DNA from: Myxococcota bacterium
GTDB taxonomy: Bacteria > Myxococcota_A > UBA796 > GCA-2862545
Direction: 5' to 3'
Assembly (NCBI GenBank): GCA_039208735.1
Contig: JBCCQY010000094.1
Location: 1 to 35,940 of the forward strand
DNA: 35,940 nucleotides
A program made the translations under genes and the position numbers. Positions 209 through 12,742 of this stretch are shown here, piece after piece (position 1 is the first letter of the stretch; each line of letters begins with the position of its first letter). Under the pieces are notes generated by a model that saw nothing but the letters and a program-made list of their open reading frames with translations, was not told the origin of the DNA and made no database searches.

Positions 209-961
209 AGCCGACCCATGAAGCTCACCGCGGTCATGTTCGCCATCGGGGCGGCGGCGCTGGGAGGCTTCCCCTTCCTGTCGGGCTTCATCAGCAAGGA
301 CATTGTGCTCGAGGCGCTCTATGAGTCGGCCCGCAACGATGACCCCCTGCTGTGGTTCCCCTTCCTCGCCTGTCTCGTCACGGTGGGATTGACCGCCTAC
401 TACATGACCTATGTGTTGGCGGCGGCGTTCTTTGGTAAGCAATCGCGCCGAGCCTATCGCGCCAAGGAAGGCGATTGGTCCATGCAGATTCCCATGGTCC
501 TATTGGCGGTGCCTTCGCTCTTTGTGGGCTTTGGGATCACCTTTTTCGCCGGGTCGTTGCAGATTGGCACCCACGGGCCGTTGCACCTGGGGGGCATTGG
601 CTTCCTCGGGTTGGTGGCATCGCTGGTGGGGTTTGCCACCGCACTTGGCGTGCTGTTCTCGCGGGGGGGCGGCCTGGTGTCGGCGCTCACTCCCATCGGC
701 ACGGTCCTCAAGTTGGGACCGGTCAATTGGACCTACGACCAGCTTTACCGCCGTACCCTGCAATTGGCAGGGGGGGTGGGATGGGTCGACCGCTACATGG
801 TCGACGGGGTGGTCAACGCGATCGGAGGGGTGACCCTGCTGCTGGGGCAGTGGTCGCGGCATCTACAGACCGGCCGGGTGGGTGACTACCTCTACGCCGT
901 AGTCGGTGGGCTTGTGCTGCTTGCAGCGTGGAGCCAGGTCATGGCATGGGTGGTGCGCTGA
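209..961 (+). CDS. nuoL: NADH-quinone oxidoreductase subunit L, 3' fragment only
   Basis: GAAALGGFPFLSGFISKDIVLE, LTAYYM and the terminal VDGVVN...LQTGRVGDYL motifs; directly precedes nuoM. The N-terminal part is absent. Confidence 0.9.
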   Translation, partial: SRPMKLTAVMFAIGAAALGGFPFLSGFISKDIVLEALYESARNDDPLLWFPFLACLVTVGLTAYYMTYVLAAAFFGKQSRRAYRAKEGDWSMQIPMVLLAVPSLFVGFGITFFAGSLQIGTHGPLHLGGIGFLGLVASLVGFATALGVLFSRGGGLVSALTPIGTVLKLGPVNWTYDQLYRRTLQLAGGVGWVDRYMVDGVVNAIGGVTLLLGQWSRHLQTGRVGDYLYAVVGGLVLLAAWSQVMAWVVR

Positions 962-2670
962 TGACGGAGACGATCCCCGCGGCAGGCGGATTCCCCATCC
1001 TCTCGTTCATCGTGTTGATGCCGCTTGTGGCGGCCATTGTGCTGCTGTTCATCCCCGATACACAGCGATCGGTAGTGCGCGGCTGGGCGCTGCTTGGCTC
1101 GGCCCTTTCGGCCTTGGCCTCGGGCTTCCTCGCGTGGCGGTACTTCACCGAAGCGACGGACGGCGGACTGATGTTCCTCGAATCCGTCGTCATCGTACAG
1201 AAGATCGGGTTGACCTACACGCTGGCCTGCGACGGGTGGAGTGCCGTACTGATGCTGCTTACGGGCATCATCACGTTCAGCGGCACTTGGGCCTCGTTCA
1301 CCCTAGAAGACCGGCCTCGCGAGTTCTTCGTCTTCCTGCTCGTGCTGGTGGCCGGGGTCTACGGCGTCTTCGTCGCACAAGACCTGCTGTTGTTCTTCCT
1401 CTTCTACGAGATTGCGGTGTTGCCGATGTACCTGCTCATCGGCATTTGGGGCAGCAGCGGAACGATTCCGCCGAGTGGCCCCTTCGGCTGGGCCTACCGC
1501 ATGCTCGATGTGGGCACAAAGCACTACGCGGCCCTTAAGCTCACCTTGATGCTGCTCGTCGGGTCGGCGCTCATCCTTGCGTCCTTCCTTTGGATTGGTG
1601 CGGAGTCGGGGTCGTTCCTAATGACGCGCATCGTCGACGAAGATCTGCCTTGGGAAGGGCAGTTCATCGTGTTCCCGCTGCTCTGGATCGGGTTTGGCAC
1701 CCTGGCTGGACTGTGGCCCTTTCACACCTGGTCGCCCGATGGCCATGCCGCAGCGCCCACCGCAGTCTCGATGTTGCACGCGGGCGTCCTCATGAAACTT
1801 GGGGCCTTTGGCGTCATGCGGGTGGGCATGGTGCTGTTGCCCCTTGGTGCCCGAGACTGGGCGATCGTCGTGGGCTTTGTCGCCTGCGTCAACATCTTCT
1901 ACGGCGCATTGTCAGCGATGGCTCAGCGCGATCTGAAGTACGTCATCGCCTACAGCTCGGTAAGTCACATGGGCATCGTGTTGTTGGGCGCGGCGGCGCT
2001 GAACGAGGCGGGCTGGAACGGGGCGGTGTTCCAGATGTTCGCACATGGCGTGATGACGGGCCTCATGTTCGCGCTGGTGGGCATCCTTTACGAACGGACC
2101 CACGACCGCTGGATTCCCAACCTCGGTGGGTTTGCGCGCATCATGCCCGTCGTGGCCGCAGGGTTTGTGCTGGCGGGTTTGTCGTCTCTCGGCATGCCCG
2201 GAACGGCGGGATTTGCGGCCGAGCTGCTCGTCTTCGTGGGCTCGTGGAGCATCCCCGCGGTGCTCCCGGAAGGCGTCGACCAGGGCTACGCACACCCCTT
2301 CGGTCCGCTGTGGGCGCTGGTGGGCATCCTCGGAGCCTTCCTTACCGCGGTCTACGTGCTGAAGGCAGCCCGCGAGATCTTCTTTGGCGATGGGCCACCC
2401 GAGCGCTTTGCCGCGCTGCAAGACGCCGTGGGCACTGAACGAGTGGCGTTGTGGACCCTCGGGGCATGCATCGTCATCTTCGGGGCTTGGCCACGCCTGC
2501 TGCTCGACCTCGTGAACGAGACGACGCCGCGCTACGTCGCGCCGTTTGCGATCGAGGCGTCAGAGAACGATGACGCCAGCGCACAGACGGTGGTCGAAGA
2601 CCCCGAAGACCTAAAAGACCCCTACGAAACCGAATCGAGCGACCGAACGCCGCGCGGGGAGGACGGGTGA
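961..2670 (+). CDS. nuoM: NADH-quinone oxidoreductase subunit M
   Basis: FYE(TM5), PFHTWSPDGH..APT, VLMKLG, IAYSSVSHMG, GFAAE motifs; TGATG coupling to nuoL; acidic C-terminal tail. Confidence 0.95.
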   Translation: MTETIPAAGGFPILSFIVLMPLVAAIVLLFIPDTQRSVVRGWALLGSALSALASGFLAWRYFTEATDGGLMFLESVVIVQKIGLTYTLACDGWSAVLMLLTGIITFSGTWASFTLEDRPREFFVFLLVLVAGVYGVFVAQDLLLFFLFYEIAVLPMYLLIGIWGSSGTIPPSGPFGWAYRMLDVGTKHYAALKLTLMLLVGSALILASFLWIGAESGSFLMTRIVDEDLPWEGQFIVFPLLWIGFGTLAGLWPFHTWSPDGHAAAPTAVSMLHAGVLMKLGAFGVMRVGMVLLPLGARDWAIVVGFVACVNIFYGALSAMAQRDLKYVIAYSSVSHMGIVLLGAAALNEAGWNGAVFQMFAHGVMTGLMFALVGILYERTHDRWIPNLGGFARIMPVVAAGFVLAGLSSLGMPGTAGFAAELLVFVGSWSIPAVLPEGVDQGYAHPFGPLWALVGILGAFLTAVYVLKAAREIFFGDGPPERFAALQDAVGTERVALWTLGACIVIFGAWPRLLLDLVNETTPRYVAPFAIEASENDDASAQTVVEDPEDLKDPYETESSDRTPRGEDG

Positions 2671-4601
2671 TGGAGTCCCTCATCATCGGGCCGCTGGCCA
2701 CCGACTTCGTCCTGTTCGCGGGCATCCTGTTCATCCTCGTGACCGACCTCATCAGCAGCGAAAAGCACCTGCTGGGCTGGGGGGCACTGCTCACGCTCCT
2801 CGCCGGCCTGCTGACCACGTTCACGCTGGGGGAGTCGTTCGGCGGTCTGGCGCTCGATGGGGCTTACCTTGGGGACCCTGTCGCACTTTGGTTCAAGCGC
2901 ATCTTCCTCATTGCTGGGGTCATCGCGACGCTCGGGTCCATCATGGATCTGTCGGAGCGGTTCGCGGGTCGGCAAGGTGAATATTGGGTGCTCCTGTTGT
3001 CGAGCATCCTCGGTATGAGCCTGCTGGCCGGGGCGCGGGATGTCGTTCTGCTCGTCGTGGCCTTCGAACTGATGAGCATCCCCTTGTATGCGCTGGCGGC
3101 ATGGAATCGGGACGAAGCCCGCGCCGTCGAAGGGTCGCTCAAACTCTACCTGCTCGGCGCGGTCTCATCGGTCACCATGATGTTCGGCGTGGCGATCCTC
3201 GTGGGGCTCTCCAATGCCACGGTTCTCGACGAGATCGCACTGTACGGGATGGCCTCGCCAAGCCCGTTGATGCTCCTTGGGGCCGTGATGGTGCTCGGAG
3301 GCGCCAGCTTCAAGCTCGGCGTGTTCCCTTTCCACATGTGGGTGCCCGACACCTACCAAGGGGGCACCACCCCGTTTGTGGCTTTCCTATCCGTGGCGCC
3401 GAAGGCCGGCGCGATGGCCGCGCTGGTGCGGGTCCTCCTCGCGGCAGACGGTGCGCTGTTGGCGGGCGTGAAGCCCATGCTGCTTACGTTGGCCGCCGCC
3501 ACCATTGTGATGGGCAGTCTGTTTGCCCTCCATCAACAAGAAGCCCGGCGGTTGCTTGCCTATTCGGGGGTGGCGCACGTCGGTCTGATGCTGATGGCGC
3601 TGGCGCCAGGCGATGAACCGTCACTCGCGATGCTCATCGTCTACCTGATCGTCTATGTGTTCACGAACATGGGCGCGTTCCTCGTCGTGCACGCCGTGGC
3701 GGGCAACAAAGGCGACGAGTTGAGGCTTCTCGACGGCTTGCACGCGCGGAGTGGCTGGCTTGCGGGCACCATGCTGCTGTTTTTGCTGTCGCTGGCCGGG
3801 ATTCCGTTCGTGGCCGGCTTCTGGGCCAAGATCTTCGTGTTCTGGGCCGCGTGGCAGGGCTCGCTCGGGTGGCTCGTCGTGCTGGCCGCGCTGATGTCGG
3901 TGGTGTCGCTGTACTACTACCTGCGCGTGGTCGACGCGATCTTCATGAAGCCTCCGCATCCCGAGGCTCCCCCGCTGACCACCGACTTTGGCACCAGTGC
4001 CGCGATCTTCATCTGTGCCGCATTCGTCGTGATTCTGGGCGTGGTGCCGCGGGCCATTGTCGATCCGGCCTTCGCTGCATCGGTGCGGTTCGAAGCCGGG
4101 GTTCCGACGGAGCGACTCGCGTTAGTGGCGGAGCGCTATGCGCGCGATGCGGCCACGATTGCGCCGCCCGACCCTGAGCCTGGCACGGCAGAACCAGCGC
4201 TCGACATTACGCGTCCCCCGGTTCTCATCGCCGAGCCTGAGCCCGAGGAGCCCGAATCCCAATGGGCCGCGTTCGACATTCGCATTCCGTTCGACCGTCG
4301 CGCTAAGGCCGTGCGGCAGCAGTTCAAGGAGCCGATGGCCAAGATCGTTGAGGTCATGTTGGCCAATTCCGAGTTGCGCTTGCGGCTCGAGGCTCGGGCC
4401 GCGCGAAGCCAGGACGTGGAAGAGGACGAGGCCTTGGCGACGAGCTACGCCAATCTGGTCATCGACGACCTCGCAGCCGCGGGCATCGCCCAAGACCGAA
4501 TTCGCATGAAGATCGTGGGGTCTTCCGAAGGTCGCGGCAGGGCAAGCAACGAGGTGTTCCTGTGGCTCGACGACGGCATTCGTCCACGGCCCGAGCGGTG
4601 A
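2670..4601 (+). CDS. nuoN: NADH-quinone oxidoreductase subunit N with Pro/Glu linker and C-terminal OmpA-like domain
   Basis: FELMSIPLY, FKLGVFPFHMWVPDTYQG, VAPKAG, RRLLAYS, SLAGIP..GFWAK, YYYLR motifs, followed by a ~170-aa soluble extension. Confidence 0.93.
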   Translation: MESLIIGPLATDFVLFAGILFILVTDLISSEKHLLGWGALLTLLAGLLTTFTLGESFGGLALDGAYLGDPVALWFKRIFLIAGVIATLGSIMDLSERFAGRQGEYWVLLLSSILGMSLLAGARDVVLLVVAFELMSIPLYALAAWNRDEARAVEGSLKLYLLGAVSSVTMMFGVAILVGLSNATVLDEIALYGMASPSPLMLLGAVMVLGGASFKLGVFPFHMWVPDTYQGGTTPFVAFLSVAPKAGAMAALVRVLLAADGALLAGVKPMLLTLAAATIVMGSLFALHQQEARRLLAYSGVAHVGLMLMALAPGDEPSLAMLIVYLIVYVFTNMGAFLVVHAVAGNKGDELRLLDGLHARSGWLAGTMLLFLLSLAGIPFVAGFWAKIFVFWAAWQGSLGWLVVLAALMSVVSLYYYLRVVDAIFMKPPHPEAPPLTTDFGTSAAIFICAAFVVILGVVPRAIVDPAFAASVRFEAGVPTERLALVAERYARDAATIAPPDPEPGTAEPALDITRPPVLIAEPEPEEPESQWAAFDIRIPFDRRAKAVRQQFKEPMAKIVEVMLANSELRLRLEARAARSQDVEEDEALATSYANLVIDDLAAAGIAQDRIRMKIVGSSEGRGRASNEVFLWLDDGIRPRPER

Positions 4602-4687
4602 CGCAGCTCGGTTGACGCGTCGGTCGTGCGGCTCAAGCGAAGGGGGCGGGGCACCGAAGATCGGGGCGAACGCAGGAGCCCATTGCG

Positions 4688-5086
4688 ATGTCGACGCCTC
4701 CGGATCTTGATTCTCCCGATGCATCGGACCTCGCGGCCACCGAGGCCGGCACGCCCGCCCGACGGTCAGCGATCGGTGCGACCATCATCGCCCCGTTCGA
4801 CGAGATGTCCGATGCGGGCCCCGAGCCGATTCGTGTCGCCCGCATGTCGCCCGTCCCGGCCCCCACCCCGGATGCGGACGCCGAGACCCAGCATCGCATC
4901 GTCGTGCATCAAGATCAGCTGCCTACGCAGGGCCTCCGTCAGGTGCCCGGCAAGGCCAAGCGCAACCTGCTCGCGGAGATCCCACGGTGGGCCTGGATTG
5001 CGGCCGCGGTCGCAATGTTCATGTTGGCTTCGCTTGGATTCACGCTCATTGGAGTGGCAATCGCCTTGTACATCGCCTTTGCGTAG
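4688..5086 (+). CDS. Hypothetical membrane protein (disordered N-terminus, C-terminal TM helix)
   Basis: GGAG RBS upstream; hydrophobic C-terminus; fills the gap after nuoN. Confidence 0.65.
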   Translation: MSTPPDLDSPDASDLAATEAGTPARRSAIGATIIAPFDEMSDAGPEPIRVARMSPVPAPTPDADAETQHRIVVHQDQLPTQGLRQVPGKAKRNLLAEIPRWAWIAAAVAMFMLASLGFTLIGVAIALYIAFA

Positions 5087-5101
5087 GCAACGCGCTGGCG
5101 G

Positions 5102-6040
5102 CTAAACGCCCGGCGCAAAGTCCTTGTCGAACGTCCAGTCTTCGATCGGAACATAGGCGCTGTCGCCCAGCATCGGTCGGTCATTGTCGTCGAGAAGTAG
5201 CATCTGACCAAAGGTGTGGTAGCCCCGGCCTGTCCGGGCGCTGGGGGTCGGCTGACCGCCCACGTACCACACCCGCTCGACCATCAGGCCCGTGGCCTGG
5301 TCGAACCGCGAGACACCTTCGTAGTTCAGTTTGAAAGTGTCGGAGTTGCGGAGCGCGAGAATGCGCCCAGGAACCTGCGCCGCCTTGCCCTGAGATTGAA
5401 CGACCCAGTGGCTATCGACCTCGTCGAGTCGATGCACGACAGAGGAGATCCCTAACGGTGCGGTGGCGGAAGGCATTTCGAGCAGCTCGGTGCGTGGTTC
5501 GAACCATGACGTACCGGTGGACACCCATTCCGGCAGATCCACTTGCAGAGGCGCCACGAGCCGCATTGCGAGTTGGCGCATCAATTCGCGCTGACGCCGC
5601 TGCGCCCGGTCACCCTGGACCACGGGGGGCAGATCCGTCGAGAGGATCGCCCGATCGTCCCGAACCGTGAGCCGCACATGCTCTCCGGTCAGGATGGTGT
5701 CCCATTGGTCGAGCACCCAGACGCCTTCGGGGGTGGCCGAGTCCCCCAGCACGAGGGCCTGAATCGCGATGTCATCGATCGTGCAGGTGACCGCCCACCG
5801 ACGACTCCCCCGAGGAGCATCCTTGTCGCAGTCGAGCACCGCGCGCATGCGCAGGCTCTCGGTCGCGGCGATCTGACCCTCTTGGATGCCCAAAACGGTT
5901 GCGAGCGGGAAGCGGAACTCGGTCTGCACGAGCCAGCGTTGCTCCCATTGCAGGAAGGGATCGCCCCACACGACGATCTCCTGATCGACCTCATCCAAAT
6001 GCGGATGGGCGAACGCAAGCGCGGACAGCGACAACAACAT
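5102..6040 (-). CDS. Hypothetical exported protein
   Basis: AGGAGG RBS; signal-like N-terminus (MLLSLSALAFA); 312-aa ORF. Confidence 0.75.
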   Translation of the reverse strand: MLLSLSALAFAHPHLDEVDQEIVVWGDPFLQWEQRWLVQTEFRFPLATVLGIQEGQIAATESLRMRAVLDCDKDAPRGSRRWAVTCTIDDIAIQALVLGDSATPEGVWVLDQWDTILTGEHVRLTVRDDRAILSTDLPPVVQGDRAQRRQRELMRQLAMRLVAPLQVDLPEWVSTGTSWFEPRTELLEMPSATAPLGISSVVHRLDEVDSHWVVQSQGKAAQVPGRILALRNSDTFKLNYEGVSRFDQATGLMVERVWYVGGQPTPSARTGRGYHTFGQMLLLDDNDRPMLGDSAYVPIEDWTFDKDFAPGV

Positions 6041-6109: not shown

Positions 6110-7348
6110 CTATTTTGCGGCTACGTCCAAGGCCGCGGGAATTCCGTAGGCTTCGGTACCGTGCTCGTGTACATCGAGCCCGCCGTGTTCTTCCTCAGCA
6201 CCCACCCGCATGCCAATCGGGCGATCGAGGACGAACAACAGTACTCCACCGGTCGCCATGCAAAACACGGCGACGGCGGCCACGCCGGTGAGCTGAGCCA
6301 CCAGGGACACTTCAGGAACGAAGATGCCTACGGCGAGGGTGCCCCACACACCGCACACCAGGTGGACGGGGACCGCGCCTACCGGGTCGTCGATGCCCGC
6401 CCGCACCAGCGCTTCCGAACTGAGGACAAGCAAGCCTCCGGCCAGCGCGCCGACGCCCGTAGCCACGATTGGGGAGAGCACATCCGCGCCTGCCGTGACG
6501 GCAACAAGCCCGGCAAGCGCCCCATTGAGCGCGATCGAGAGGTCCGGCTGGCCCAAGCGTGCCCAGGAAGCAAAGGCCGCTACGAGCACGCCCGCCGCTG
6601 CAGCGAGCGTCGTGGTGACGGAAACGTAGGAAATGGCTGCGGGGTCGGCGGAAAGGACCGAACCACCGTTGAAGCCGTACCATCCGAACCAAAGCAAGAG
6701 CACGCCAATCGCGGCCAGAGGTGCGGAGTGGCCGCGGAAGCCCTTCCCCTCAAAGGCACCGATTCGTGGACCGATCCACCATGCGGCGAGGAGTGCCGCC
6801 CAACCCCCCACGCCATGCACGATGGTCGAGCCGGCGAAGTCGTGGAATCCGGCCTTCAGCAGGAATCCTCCTCCCCAGTGCCAAAAGCCCACGATCGGGT
6901 AGACCACAGCCACGTACAGCGTGCTGAAGATGAGAAAGCTTACCAGGCGTACCCGCTCGGCCACCGCGCCGCTCACGATGGTGGCGGCCGTCGCGGCGAA
7001 CATCGCCTGGAACAGAAAGTCGGTCCAATAGGTGTAGGCGCCGTCGGCGTAGGCCGCGGTCACGCCGCGGGCATCGGTTCCAATCCCAAAGCCGGCGAAG
7101 CCGAAGACACCGCCCGCGAAGGATTCGCCAGGGTACATCAGCGAAAAGCCTACGGCTGCGTAAGTGAGCAGCCCAATGCTTAGGATGCAGATGTTCTTGA
7201 ACAGGATGTTCACCGTGTTTTTCGCGCGCGTACTTCCCGCTTCGAGGGCGGCGAAACCAAGGTGCATCGTGAACACGAGAAAGGTCGCGACGAGCATCCA
7301 GGCATTGTTCAGCCAGAACTGCACGTCCGTCGCGGTGACGGGGTCCAT
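6110..7348 (-). CDS. amt: Ammonium transporter (Amt family)
   Basis: GFAALEAG, FQAMFAAT, SGAVAER, DFAGS, twin His (IVHG, PVHL), GWYGFNGGS, DDPVGA; start reassigned to ATG 7348 with GGAG RBS. Confidence 0.96.
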   Translation of the reverse strand: MDPVTATDVQFWLNNAWMLVATFLVFTMHLGFAALEAGSTRAKNTVNILFKNICILSIGLLTYAAVGFSLMYPGESFAGGVFGFAGFGIGTDARGVTAAYADGAYTYWTDFLFQAMFAATAATIVSGAVAERVRLVSFLIFSTLYVAVVYPIVGFWHWGGGFLLKAGFHDFAGSTIVHGVGGWAALLAAWWIGPRIGAFEGKGFRGHSAPLAAIGVLLLWFGWYGFNGGSVLSADPAAISYVSVTTTLAAAAGVLVAAFASWARLGQPDLSIALNGALAGLVAVTAGADVLSPIVATGVGALAGGLLVLSSEALVRAGIDDPVGAVPVHLVCGVWGTLAVGIFVPEVSLVAQLTGVAAVAVFCMATGGVLLFVLDRPIGMRVGAEEEHGGLDVHEHGTEAYGIPAALDVAAK

Positions 7349-7381
7349 GTCGATTCTCCGAAAGACGTCGCGGTAGGCGTC

Positions 7382-7398
7382 TTCAGCATTCGTGCCAG
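7382..7398 (-). promoter_or_regulatory. Putative sigma54 (-24/-12) promoter of amt
   Basis: Minus strand CTGGCACGAATGCTGAA: perfect TGGCACG -24 box and correctly spaced but non-canonical -12 (CTGAA instead of TTGCA). Confidence 0.6.
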
Positions 7399-7449
7399 AC
7401 GCCGACTTTGAAACAAGCAGGAGAATCGGTAGGGAACGGATCGATTGGT

Positions 7450-7494
7450 CTACATAAATGTAGGTGCCGTCCAAGAATCCTACGTCTGCGTAGG
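7450..7494. promoter_or_regulatory. Two CTAC-N6-GTAG palindromes, candidate enhancer-binding-protein sites
   Basis: CTACATAAATGTAG (7450-7463) and CCTACGTCTGCGTAGG (7479-7494), centres 30 bp apart, upstream of the sigma54-like box. Confidence 0.55.
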
Positions 7495-11861: not shown

Positions 11862-12742
11862 ACCCCCTCTTTGGTGAGCCCTCCGAGGAGTTTAGGCGCC
11901 TGAGTTCGTGCGAATCGTGCGAAGTGATCGATGATCACTCGGATTCGCGGGCTATGGCGCAGATCGGAATGGGTAAGGATCCACAGCGAGGAATCCCCGA
12001 GGCGGGGTTCGGTCAGCCGCACGAGCCCTGGGTCAGCGTCGCCAAACACACAGGCGAGCGACAGGACGGTATGCCCGCGCCGGGCCGCTTCGAGGAGGAC
12101 GGGTACGGAGTTGGCGTACATCACCACGGGCTGGTCGGGTGAAGTGGCGGCACGGGCTGCCTCCAAGGTCCCCGTCGTGCTCGACGACCACCCAAACCAC
12201 GGCCAGGTCTCGCGGGGACGATTTAGCAGCGAGGGCGCGCCGTACATCGCTTCGGCCATGGGCGCCAGACGTCGCCCCACGAGATGCTCCGGTGGGTCCG
12301 CGACCCGCCGCAATGCAACGTCGGCTTCCCGTCGGGTGAGGCTGCGAAAGTCGTCGTCGACCACCAATTCGAGGTCGAGTTGAGGGTAGCGGTCGGTGAA
12401 GTTCCGCAATTCGTCGATCCAGAGCGTGGCCAGTAGCTCTGGCAGGGTGAGGCGAAGGAGCCCGGTGGGCTCCTCATCGACCCCATCCAAGCGTCGCCCC
12501 AACGAAAGCAGTTGATCTTCCACCGCAACCGCGGCTTCGACCACTGCCTCCCCAGCCGCGGTGAGTCGGACCCCCCCTCGCAGGACGTCGAACAGCCGAA
12601 TCGCAAGCTTCTCTTCGAGGGCCCGCAGCCGGCGGGTCACCGTGGTTTGATCCACGCCAAGGGCGCGGGCGGCTCGGGTCAAGGTGCCTTCGCGAGCGAT
12701 GGACAGCACGAAGCGTAGGTCATCCCAAGACTTCAGCGTCAT
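11858..12742 (-). CDS. LysR-family transcriptional regulator
   Basis: [44 protein letters not shown] substrate domain. Confidence 0.95.

Follow-up and report, generated by a model that had tools for sequence, protein, structure and literature searches.

A complex I subunit NuoN continued by a domain of predicted OmpA-like fold in a small clade of Myxococcota

The NuoN protein of complex I continues, in a group of Myxococcota, into an additional C-terminal domain that descends from the OmpA-like family. We regard this complex I, with its extra periplasmic domains, as a real and rare variant that is confined to one clade. The variant was studied in a window of 35,940 nucleotides, which is the whole stretch of DNA that was analysed. 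Its source genome (G000) consists of 288 contigs, is 92.7% complete and has 6% contamination, while a second genome of the same genus (G001) is sister to it. The features are collected in Table 1.

Table 1. Position of the fusion gene, its parts, its neighbours and related domains. Coordinates refer to the window unless a contig (C) or locus (L) is named.
Feature	Coordinates	Strand	Remarks
nuoL, 3' part	211..961	+	nuoA B C D H I J K and the 5' part of nuoL at the end of contig C114
nuoM	958..2670	+	TIGR01972 above cut-off; stop overlaps the nuoN start
nuoN-OmpA fusion ORF	2670-4601	+	ATG 2670 to TGA 4601, 643 aa, single frame
NuoN core, residues 1-473	2670..4088	+	14 predicted membrane helices, usual short terminal helix; TIGR01770, hydropathy
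Added conserved segment, residues 474-490 (FEAGVPTERLALVAERY)	4089..4139	+	conservation in 7 records
Pro/Glu-rich spacer, residues 491-529	4140..4256	+	26% Pro, 26% Asp+Glu
OmpA-like domain, residues 530-643 and stop	4257..4601	+	114 residues; predicted beta-alpha-beta-alpha-beta-beta
Degenerate wall-binding motif	4389..4448	+	E574-A-R576-A-A578 for E-G-H-T-D; L-A-T-S-Y593-A for L-S-x-x-R-A
Small ORF downstream of nuoN	4688..5086	+	132 aa, low-complexity N-terminus, C-terminal hydrophobic helix
NuoJ with insert, G000	L069 9733-10566		
NuoJ with insert, G001	L077 1501-2307		
Asp-less OmpA-like domains, G000	C164:15674-15964, C93:1471-1749, C38:36658-36909		
Asp-less OmpA-like domains, G000 (continued)	C3:54316-54528, C181:4521-4814, C218:4482-4694		

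The gene has the place that is expected of nuoN: it closes the nuo operon, following nuoL and nuoM, and it is the only copy in G000. The operon order nuoA B C D H I J K L M N is found on one contig in G001 and is split across C114 and the contig of the window in G000. The core reaches 333 bits against TIGR01770, a slim margin over the cut-off of 332.6, with positions 8-471 of the 472 in the profile aligned to residues 13-463. Solved NuoN chains align with the core to residue 470 (8e9g_N) or over 16-465 (3rko_N), and the last membrane helix lies at approximately 3996-4049. The residues used for pumping, E133, K215, K245 and K387, are all retained; K245 and K387 are presumably K247 and K395 of E. 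coli NuoN. E133 and K215 are the E. coli residues E133 and K217 named in PMC3046159. Judged by these intact residues only, the core would still pump protons.

Both G000 and G001 lack nuoE, nuoF and nuoG in the operon, which leaves 11 operon genes. NuoF- and NuoG-like matches are found in all five genomes of the genus, in every case below the cut-off, and in G000 they lie within a formate dehydrogenase cluster. The sole NuoF-like gene of G000 is near the gene of the formate dehydrogenase alpha subunit (L099 7148-8668 and 12527-15253, contig C5). This alpha gene contains a single in-frame TGA, the same in 5/5 genomes of the genus, which probably encodes selenocysteine. It is speculation that the cluster could provide the electron input for an 11-subunit complex I.

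Small differences are also seen in the neighbouring genes. Relative to genome G004, a loop of nuoM (window approximately 2280-2330) carries an insert of 13 residues in G000 and 24 in G001, and an acidic tail of about 30 residues (window 2560-2667) is present in G000 alone when G000, G001 and G004 are aligned. The small ORF behind nuoN has no match in a Pfam search. A 47% identical homologue follows nuoN in G001, and ORFs of 72-76 aa with its short motif follow nuoN in G002 and G004, while no homologue was seen among the G003 ORFs of at least 70 aa. The small ORF is older than the fusion and not part of it, a candidate accessory subunit that may belong to the operon. Neither a promoter nor a convincing terminator was found at positions 4000-5200. 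Further downstream, an ammonium transporter (PF00909; window 6110-7474, minus strand) lies behind the nuo genes in both genomes. Between it and the operon there is in G000 a gene of 312 aa (window 5102-6040, minus strand) that has no Pfam match and is not there in G001. A gene of 293 aa (L069 5467-6348, minus strand) lies between nuoB and nuoC on the opposite strand in G000 and is absent from this place in G001; from its sequence we take it to be an AraC-type regulator with a GyrI-like domain.

The fusion itself was the first claim of an earlier note on this DNA, and it holds: the frame is continuous and the junction is found in independent sequences. A stop codon after the NuoN core, which the note had named as evidence against a fusion, is absent from the ORF (2670-4601, by reading of the frame), from the fused relatives and from a contig of sequencing run X2. 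This contig comes from a different study; it covers 3946-4625 and shows 16 differences but zero gaps. A contig of run X1 also bridges the junction without gaps; X1 may be the source of the window and is therefore not independent. A search of sequencing runs listed no RNA run with this sequence. In codon-position GC the OmpA-like domain matches the NuoN core.

An artefact, that is read-through or a misassembly that fused nuoN to a fragment of a neighbouring gene, might be suspected in such a fragmented and contaminated assembly, in which the contig ends on both sides of the nuoL break are foreign. However, the fusion is shared by six distinct proteins that were obtained from NCBI, JGI and Logan, the contigs of X1 and X2 cross the junction gap-free and the codon-position GC of the domain is that of the core. 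The independent sequences refute the artefact, and we give it practically no chance. The contig ends themselves are a separate matter. Positions 1-210 of the window are foreign sequence (GC 0.45 against 0.64, and a depth of approximately 4000 against 9-13 in run X1) and are a misassembly inside nuoL; a contig whose loose end lies at 211 runs on into nuoL-like sequence. At the end of C114 (L069 approximately 11930-12118) the last approximately 45 nuoL codons abruptly diverge from G001 and resemble the NuoL of another organism, and this is probably a chimeric contig end.

Profile searches gave seven fused records, all of which also match the NuoN Pfam family. One of them is a fragment identical to another over the compared ranges, so that six distinct fused sequences remain. 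The combination of NuoN and an OmpA-like domain, which the earlier note had proposed to look for in relatives, is thus present in G001 and in four more distinct proteins. For two of the fused records the source gives the name NADH-quinone oxidoreductase subunit N, Myxococcota bacterium. The G001 contig with the fusion (C37) is titled Enterobacteriaceae, yet its NuoN groups with Myxococcota-labelled proteins and the title is probably a mislabel. Among the six fused lineages the cores are 78-89% identical, with one close pair at 97%. Between G000 and G001 the core is 83% identical and the domain 47%.

For comparison, 41 genomes were searched for NuoN; 24 had a match, and 30 of the 33 matches were retrieved as loci. 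After the last helix all 28 unfused NuoN rows, from 22 genomes and including three of the same genus, have 15-36 residues, while the six fused proteins have 183-190. In a tree of the NuoN core the six fused proteins form one clade (support 100/100), nested with three unfused members of the genus. This pattern shows a single origin, and one ancestor within the genus would have gained the domain as a C-terminal extension of NuoN.

At the level of the order, 2 of 154 genomes carry the tail domain of NuoN, namely G000 and G001. In a phylum sample of 400 other genomes, for each of which 11 candidates were scored, nothing more matched at E 1e-8, and homologue searches that used the tail, or the NuoJ insert described below, as a single query sequence returned only the own proteins of G000. 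These searches would miss cases in which NuoN had been joined elsewhere, independently, to an OmpA domain of the canonical type. Several candidates were rejected: two long repeat proteins that match approximately 30 positions by chance, two metagenome loci with 48-residue frames lacking NuoN, five weak order-level matches that are ordinary OmpA-family proteins with GHTD or GHAD, and one more ordinary OmpA-family protein.

That the tail belongs to the OmpA-like family is seen from several profiles, each of modest strength. PF00691 matches the domain alone with E 0.0015 and 19.2 bits over residues 541-620, which does not reach the Pfam cut-off of 27.2 bits; it gives 13.7 and 14.4 bits for two homologues and no listed match for two other inputs. 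Nine NCBIfam families match the domain, the best with E 4e-5, and all nine are families of proteins with OmpA-like domains. The C-terminal domain of PorE matches with E 0.005, and the first matches in the ESM Atlas are OmpA (0.94). As a control, an HMM was built from the 26 other OmpA domains of G000. It gives the NuoN domain 21.8 bits; of 500 shuffles, 468 received a score and the highest was 7.1. Two fused homologues reach only 9-10 bits. A profile search against PDB sequences with a four-row alignment found nothing better than E 0.19. No donor gene was identified in G000, where the best of the 26 OmpA domains is 24% identical to that of NuoN.

The predicted structure agrees with the profiles. 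The AlphaFold input was four fused homologues, without any canonical OmpA sequence, and the model of the domain has pLDDT 89.7 and pTM 0.83; three of the five models are above pLDDT 87, the others at 66 and 55. Domains of Pal, PorE and OmpA are the top Foldseek matches (E 2e-6, TM 0.73). In a wide structure search the best match has Z 12.8 and an rmsd of 2.6 over 103 aligned residues, and clearly unrelated folds appear only at Z 6.5 or below. Ranks 1-32 of this search are proteins with OmpA-like domains. The model thus has the OmpA-like fold that the earlier note had suspected, with a mixed four-stranded sheet and two helices on one face, although the third helix before the last strand is missing. 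Further, strands 3 and 4 are joined by a link that lacks a helix and is shorter than the canonical one by about 9 residues.

The residues that bind the wall are a different matter. The family motif of OmpA-like peptidoglycan binders is given in 10.1101/641415 as TD-x10-LS-x2-RA-x2-V-x3-L, and in Acinetobacter OmpA Asp271 and Arg286 bind diaminopimelate, according to PMC12108004. None of the seven fused records matches the motif. The position of the Asp is Ala in 7/7, and that of the Arg is Tyr in four and Phe in three, while the canonical NRRV reads xNEV or xNQV. The changes from GHTD to ARAA and from RA to YA were thus correctly read by the earlier note, and the residues that it quoted (IPFDRRAKAV...LEARAA...DEALATSYANLVIDDLAAAGIAQDRIRMKIVG) lie at 539-617, after the Pro/Glu-rich spacer. 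With the Asp/Arg clamp lost, canonical wall binding is most likely gone. Since both the Pfam cut-off and the binding motif failed, we do not class the domain as a peptidoglycan binder. Wall binding should nevertheless not be dismissed lightly: of the motif Salmonella SiiA has just L-x3-R, yet it binds peptidoglycan at pH 5.8, for which the non-motif R162 is essential (10.1101/641415).

Among the 26 other OmpA domains of G000, the Asp is retained in 20, the Arg in 24 and the pair of them in 19. As 19 keep both, the wall ligand appears unchanged and the canonical ligand is evidently still used in this organism. Judged from the sequences, partial degeneration of the motif is not rare among the OmpA domains of G000; six others are without the motif Asp, and four of these have G001 orthologues with 72-83% identity.

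What replaced the motif is itself conserved. Over the domain, 28 positions are invariant across the seven records, at a pairwise identity of 43-66% among distinct lineages. They include R543, E574, R576, D586, G617-S618-x-E620-G621-x-G623-x-A625-x-N627 and W632-x-D634-D635-G636-x-R638. When aligned to the canonical motif, about half of the invariant residues lie towards the ligand pocket end of the domain, and they would fit a rebuilt ligand site equally well. In composition the domain ranges from neutral to acidic (11-19 K+R against 18-24 D+E).

Between core and domain there is a connecting part that is also shared. In the added segment F474, E475, P479, L483, V486, R489 and Y490 are invariant in 7/7 fused records, and dN/dS for residues 474-497 is 0.18 between G000 and G001; the segment probably forms a helix along the periplasmic face of the subunit. 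All six full sequences have a spacer of 39-40 residues, with 21-28% Pro and 23-26% Asp+Glu. Over 474-529 the identity is 38-62% among distinct lineages and 79% in the close pair.

The domain is predicted to be periplasmic. NuoL, M and N share 14 helices of similar orientation, and in NuoL a lateral helix, which runs along the cytoplasmic side, connects the two additional helices (PMC3046159). With the lateral helix in the cytoplasm, helix 15 has to begin, and helix 14 to end, in the periplasm. Fused NuoN has 14 hydrophobic segments, placed by hand, and its tail has a maximum hydropathy of 1.14 and no further hydrophobic segment. With these hand-placed helices the loops contain 4 Lys+Arg on the side of the C-terminus vs 12 on the opposite side. 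Hydropathy and charge are therefore consistent with the periplasmic side assumed in the earlier note.

Selection on the domain was studied by comparing G000 and G001, using simple two-sequence estimates of dN/dS at a dS near 1. These give 0.12 for the core and 0.45 for the OmpA-like domain, with a bootstrap range of 0.28-0.68 and 0 of 1000 resamples reaching 1. As a control, 21 reciprocal-best pairs of OmpA domains were taken from the same genomes. They are 57-88% identical (median 77%) and have a median dN/dS of 0.15; none is as low in identity as the NuoN domain, and one has a higher dN/dS (0.52). The NuoN domain is thus under purifying but loose selection.

NuoN is not the only subunit with an addition. 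In G000 and G001 NuoJ has an insert of approximately 105-115 residues between its last two helices. It is present in 2 of the 16 NuoJ compared, the other 14 of the family being without it (15 of 49 genomes matched in the NuoJ survey), and the 2 of 154 order genomes that match it are the two with the NuoN fusion. This co-occurrence in two sister genomes, out of six fused sequences, is one event and not a correlation. The insert has a dN/dS of 0.37, and its model is beta-alpha-beta-beta-alpha-beta at pLDDT 70. The best Z in a structure search is 7.6, a value common to many unrelated ferredoxin-like folds, and there is no Pfam match, no usable Atlas match and no Foldseek match at E 0.001; for these reasons no family is assigned. 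Support for a SPOR, SIMPL or FtsX-like domain was not above background. In mycobacteria the C-terminus of NuoJ reaches the cytoplasmic arm (PMC10068793), so the loop with the insert would be periplasmic. Further, NuoN touches NuoK and NuoJ surrounds NuoK, according to PMC9035099, which would place the NuoN domain and the NuoJ insert near each other. A complex prediction of the two gave a score of 0.12 against a mark of 0.32 and counts neither for nor against a contact.

What the domain does is proposed here from sequence and models, and from six fused sequences that all come from uncultured organisms. We tentatively favour a repurposed protein-docking or scaffold arm on the 11-subunit complex I, which we find quite possible. 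The C-terminus would exit the membrane into the periplasm and be followed by the short conserved helix, an extended spacer of about 39 residues and the OmpA-fold domain. The domain, without its clamp for diaminopimelate, would then act as a supernumerary subunit in cis, and together with the ferredoxin-fold insert of NuoJ it would make up a set of periplasmic additions to complex I. Candidates for the partner are the insert of NuoJ, another complex I and proteins of the periplasm or outer membrane. Because the residues that grip the wall are missing, such an arm is more probable than an ordinary wall tether, and the loss of both clamp residues together with the relaxed rate argues against a normal anchor. 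The docking arm is weakened by the domain being the fastest-evolving OmpA-like domain in the G000/G001 pair, which fits a weak function, and by a spacer that exceeds the need of a domain resting on the complex. It is weakened further because the co-occurrence with the NuoJ insert is a single evolutionary event and because the invariants at the pocket end fit a rebuilt ligand site. A tolerated passenger, fused by a rearrangement at the operon end, with its ligand site lost by disuse and no role in complex I, we hold to be rather unlikely. It would persist only to stay folded and to avoid periplasmic proteolysis or aggregation. Its conservation is the lowest of the OmpA-like domains compared, its binding residues are lost, all 28 unfused NuoN rows make do with their short tails and the lineage has other small accretions, such as the loop insert and acidic tail of NuoM. 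However, a single stop codon would remove the domain, yet six lineages keep the frame; this, the fixed length of the spacer and replacement residues that are invariant and not random argue against pure drift.

A non-canonical wall tether is unlikely in our view. Here the spacer would cross the periplasm, and a rebuilt pocket (R543, R576) would hold peptidoglycan or another envelope anion, so that complex I stays in place in the way that MotB holds the flagellar stator. To our knowledge there is no reason for a quinone-coupled, torque-free pump to need an anchor. The layout of membrane protein, extended spacer and OmpA-fold domain is that of MotB and SiiA, the conserved 39 residues could reach an estimated 10-12 nm when extended, new arginines at the pocket end are invariant and SiiA binds peptidoglycan in spite of its reduced motif (10.1101/641415). 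In contrast, SiiA retains the motif Arg where the NuoN domain has Tyr or Phe, in addition to Ala for the Asp; the domain is neutral to acidic, and it is less conserved than the canonical binders of the same genomes. Thus, of the tether to the wall or to a partner that the earlier note had proposed, the MotB-like wall part is weakened, with the clamp replaced in 7/7 records and conservation below that of the 21 pairs, while tethering to a partner fits better. A further idea, which we consider unlikely, is that complex I is anchored in the envelope by the fixed-length spacer and rebuilt pocket and that, with the NuoJ insert, a periplasmic superstructure positions the pump. If true, a respiratory complex would here possess an envelope tether of its own, and if the domain binds the wall, respiration would be linked to the architecture of the envelope.

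Returning to what is common to these readings, two neighbouring subunits of the membrane arm appear to have gained periplasmic-face domains in one small clade. This would be a dated natural case of supernumerary parts arising by fusion, and of an OmpA fold that is reused after its ligand residues were lost. In the open-access literature searched, with most subscription papers outside the search, we found no described example of the fusion, in line with the earlier note, and no description of accessory or periplasmic domains of Myxococcota complex I or of NuoN-cytochrome c fusions.

Compared with canonical NuoN, Nqo14 and NdhB (TIGR01770; 3RKO_N, 8E9G_N, 8QBY_N, 6HUM_B), the protein has the same antiporter-like core, with 14 predicted helices, the same pump residues and the same place at the end of the operon, but differs in the long tail past the last helix and, in G001, in an operon without nuoEFG. 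With Pal, OmpA, OprF and PorE (PF00691; 4PWT, 3TD3, 5U1H, 6TOP) the domain shares the predicted fold, at Z 11-12.8 and an rmsd of 2.0-2.8 A over approximately 100 residues. It differs from them in Ala and Tyr/Phe at the equivalents of Asp271 and Arg286, in the absence of the third helix and in being carried by a respiratory subunit of the inner membrane. MotB, PomB and SiiA likewise join a proton-handling inner-membrane protein, a linker and an OmpA-like domain, and in SiiA the motif is also reduced. However, they have one membrane helix, a MotA-type partner and the motif Arg, while fused NuoN has 14 predicted helices and no such Arg; the single N-terminal helix with a channel Asp that is typical of stators is not found in it. 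Lineage-restricted extra mass is also known from mycobacterial complex I (MSMEG_2064 and the extensions of NuoB, C, H and J) and from Nqo16 of Thermus. These additions probably brace or regulate the complex (PMC10068793) and sit at the cytoplasmic peripheral arm. In contrast to these cytoplasmic additions, those of NuoN and NuoJ are predicted to be folded domains on the periplasmic face, added in cis.
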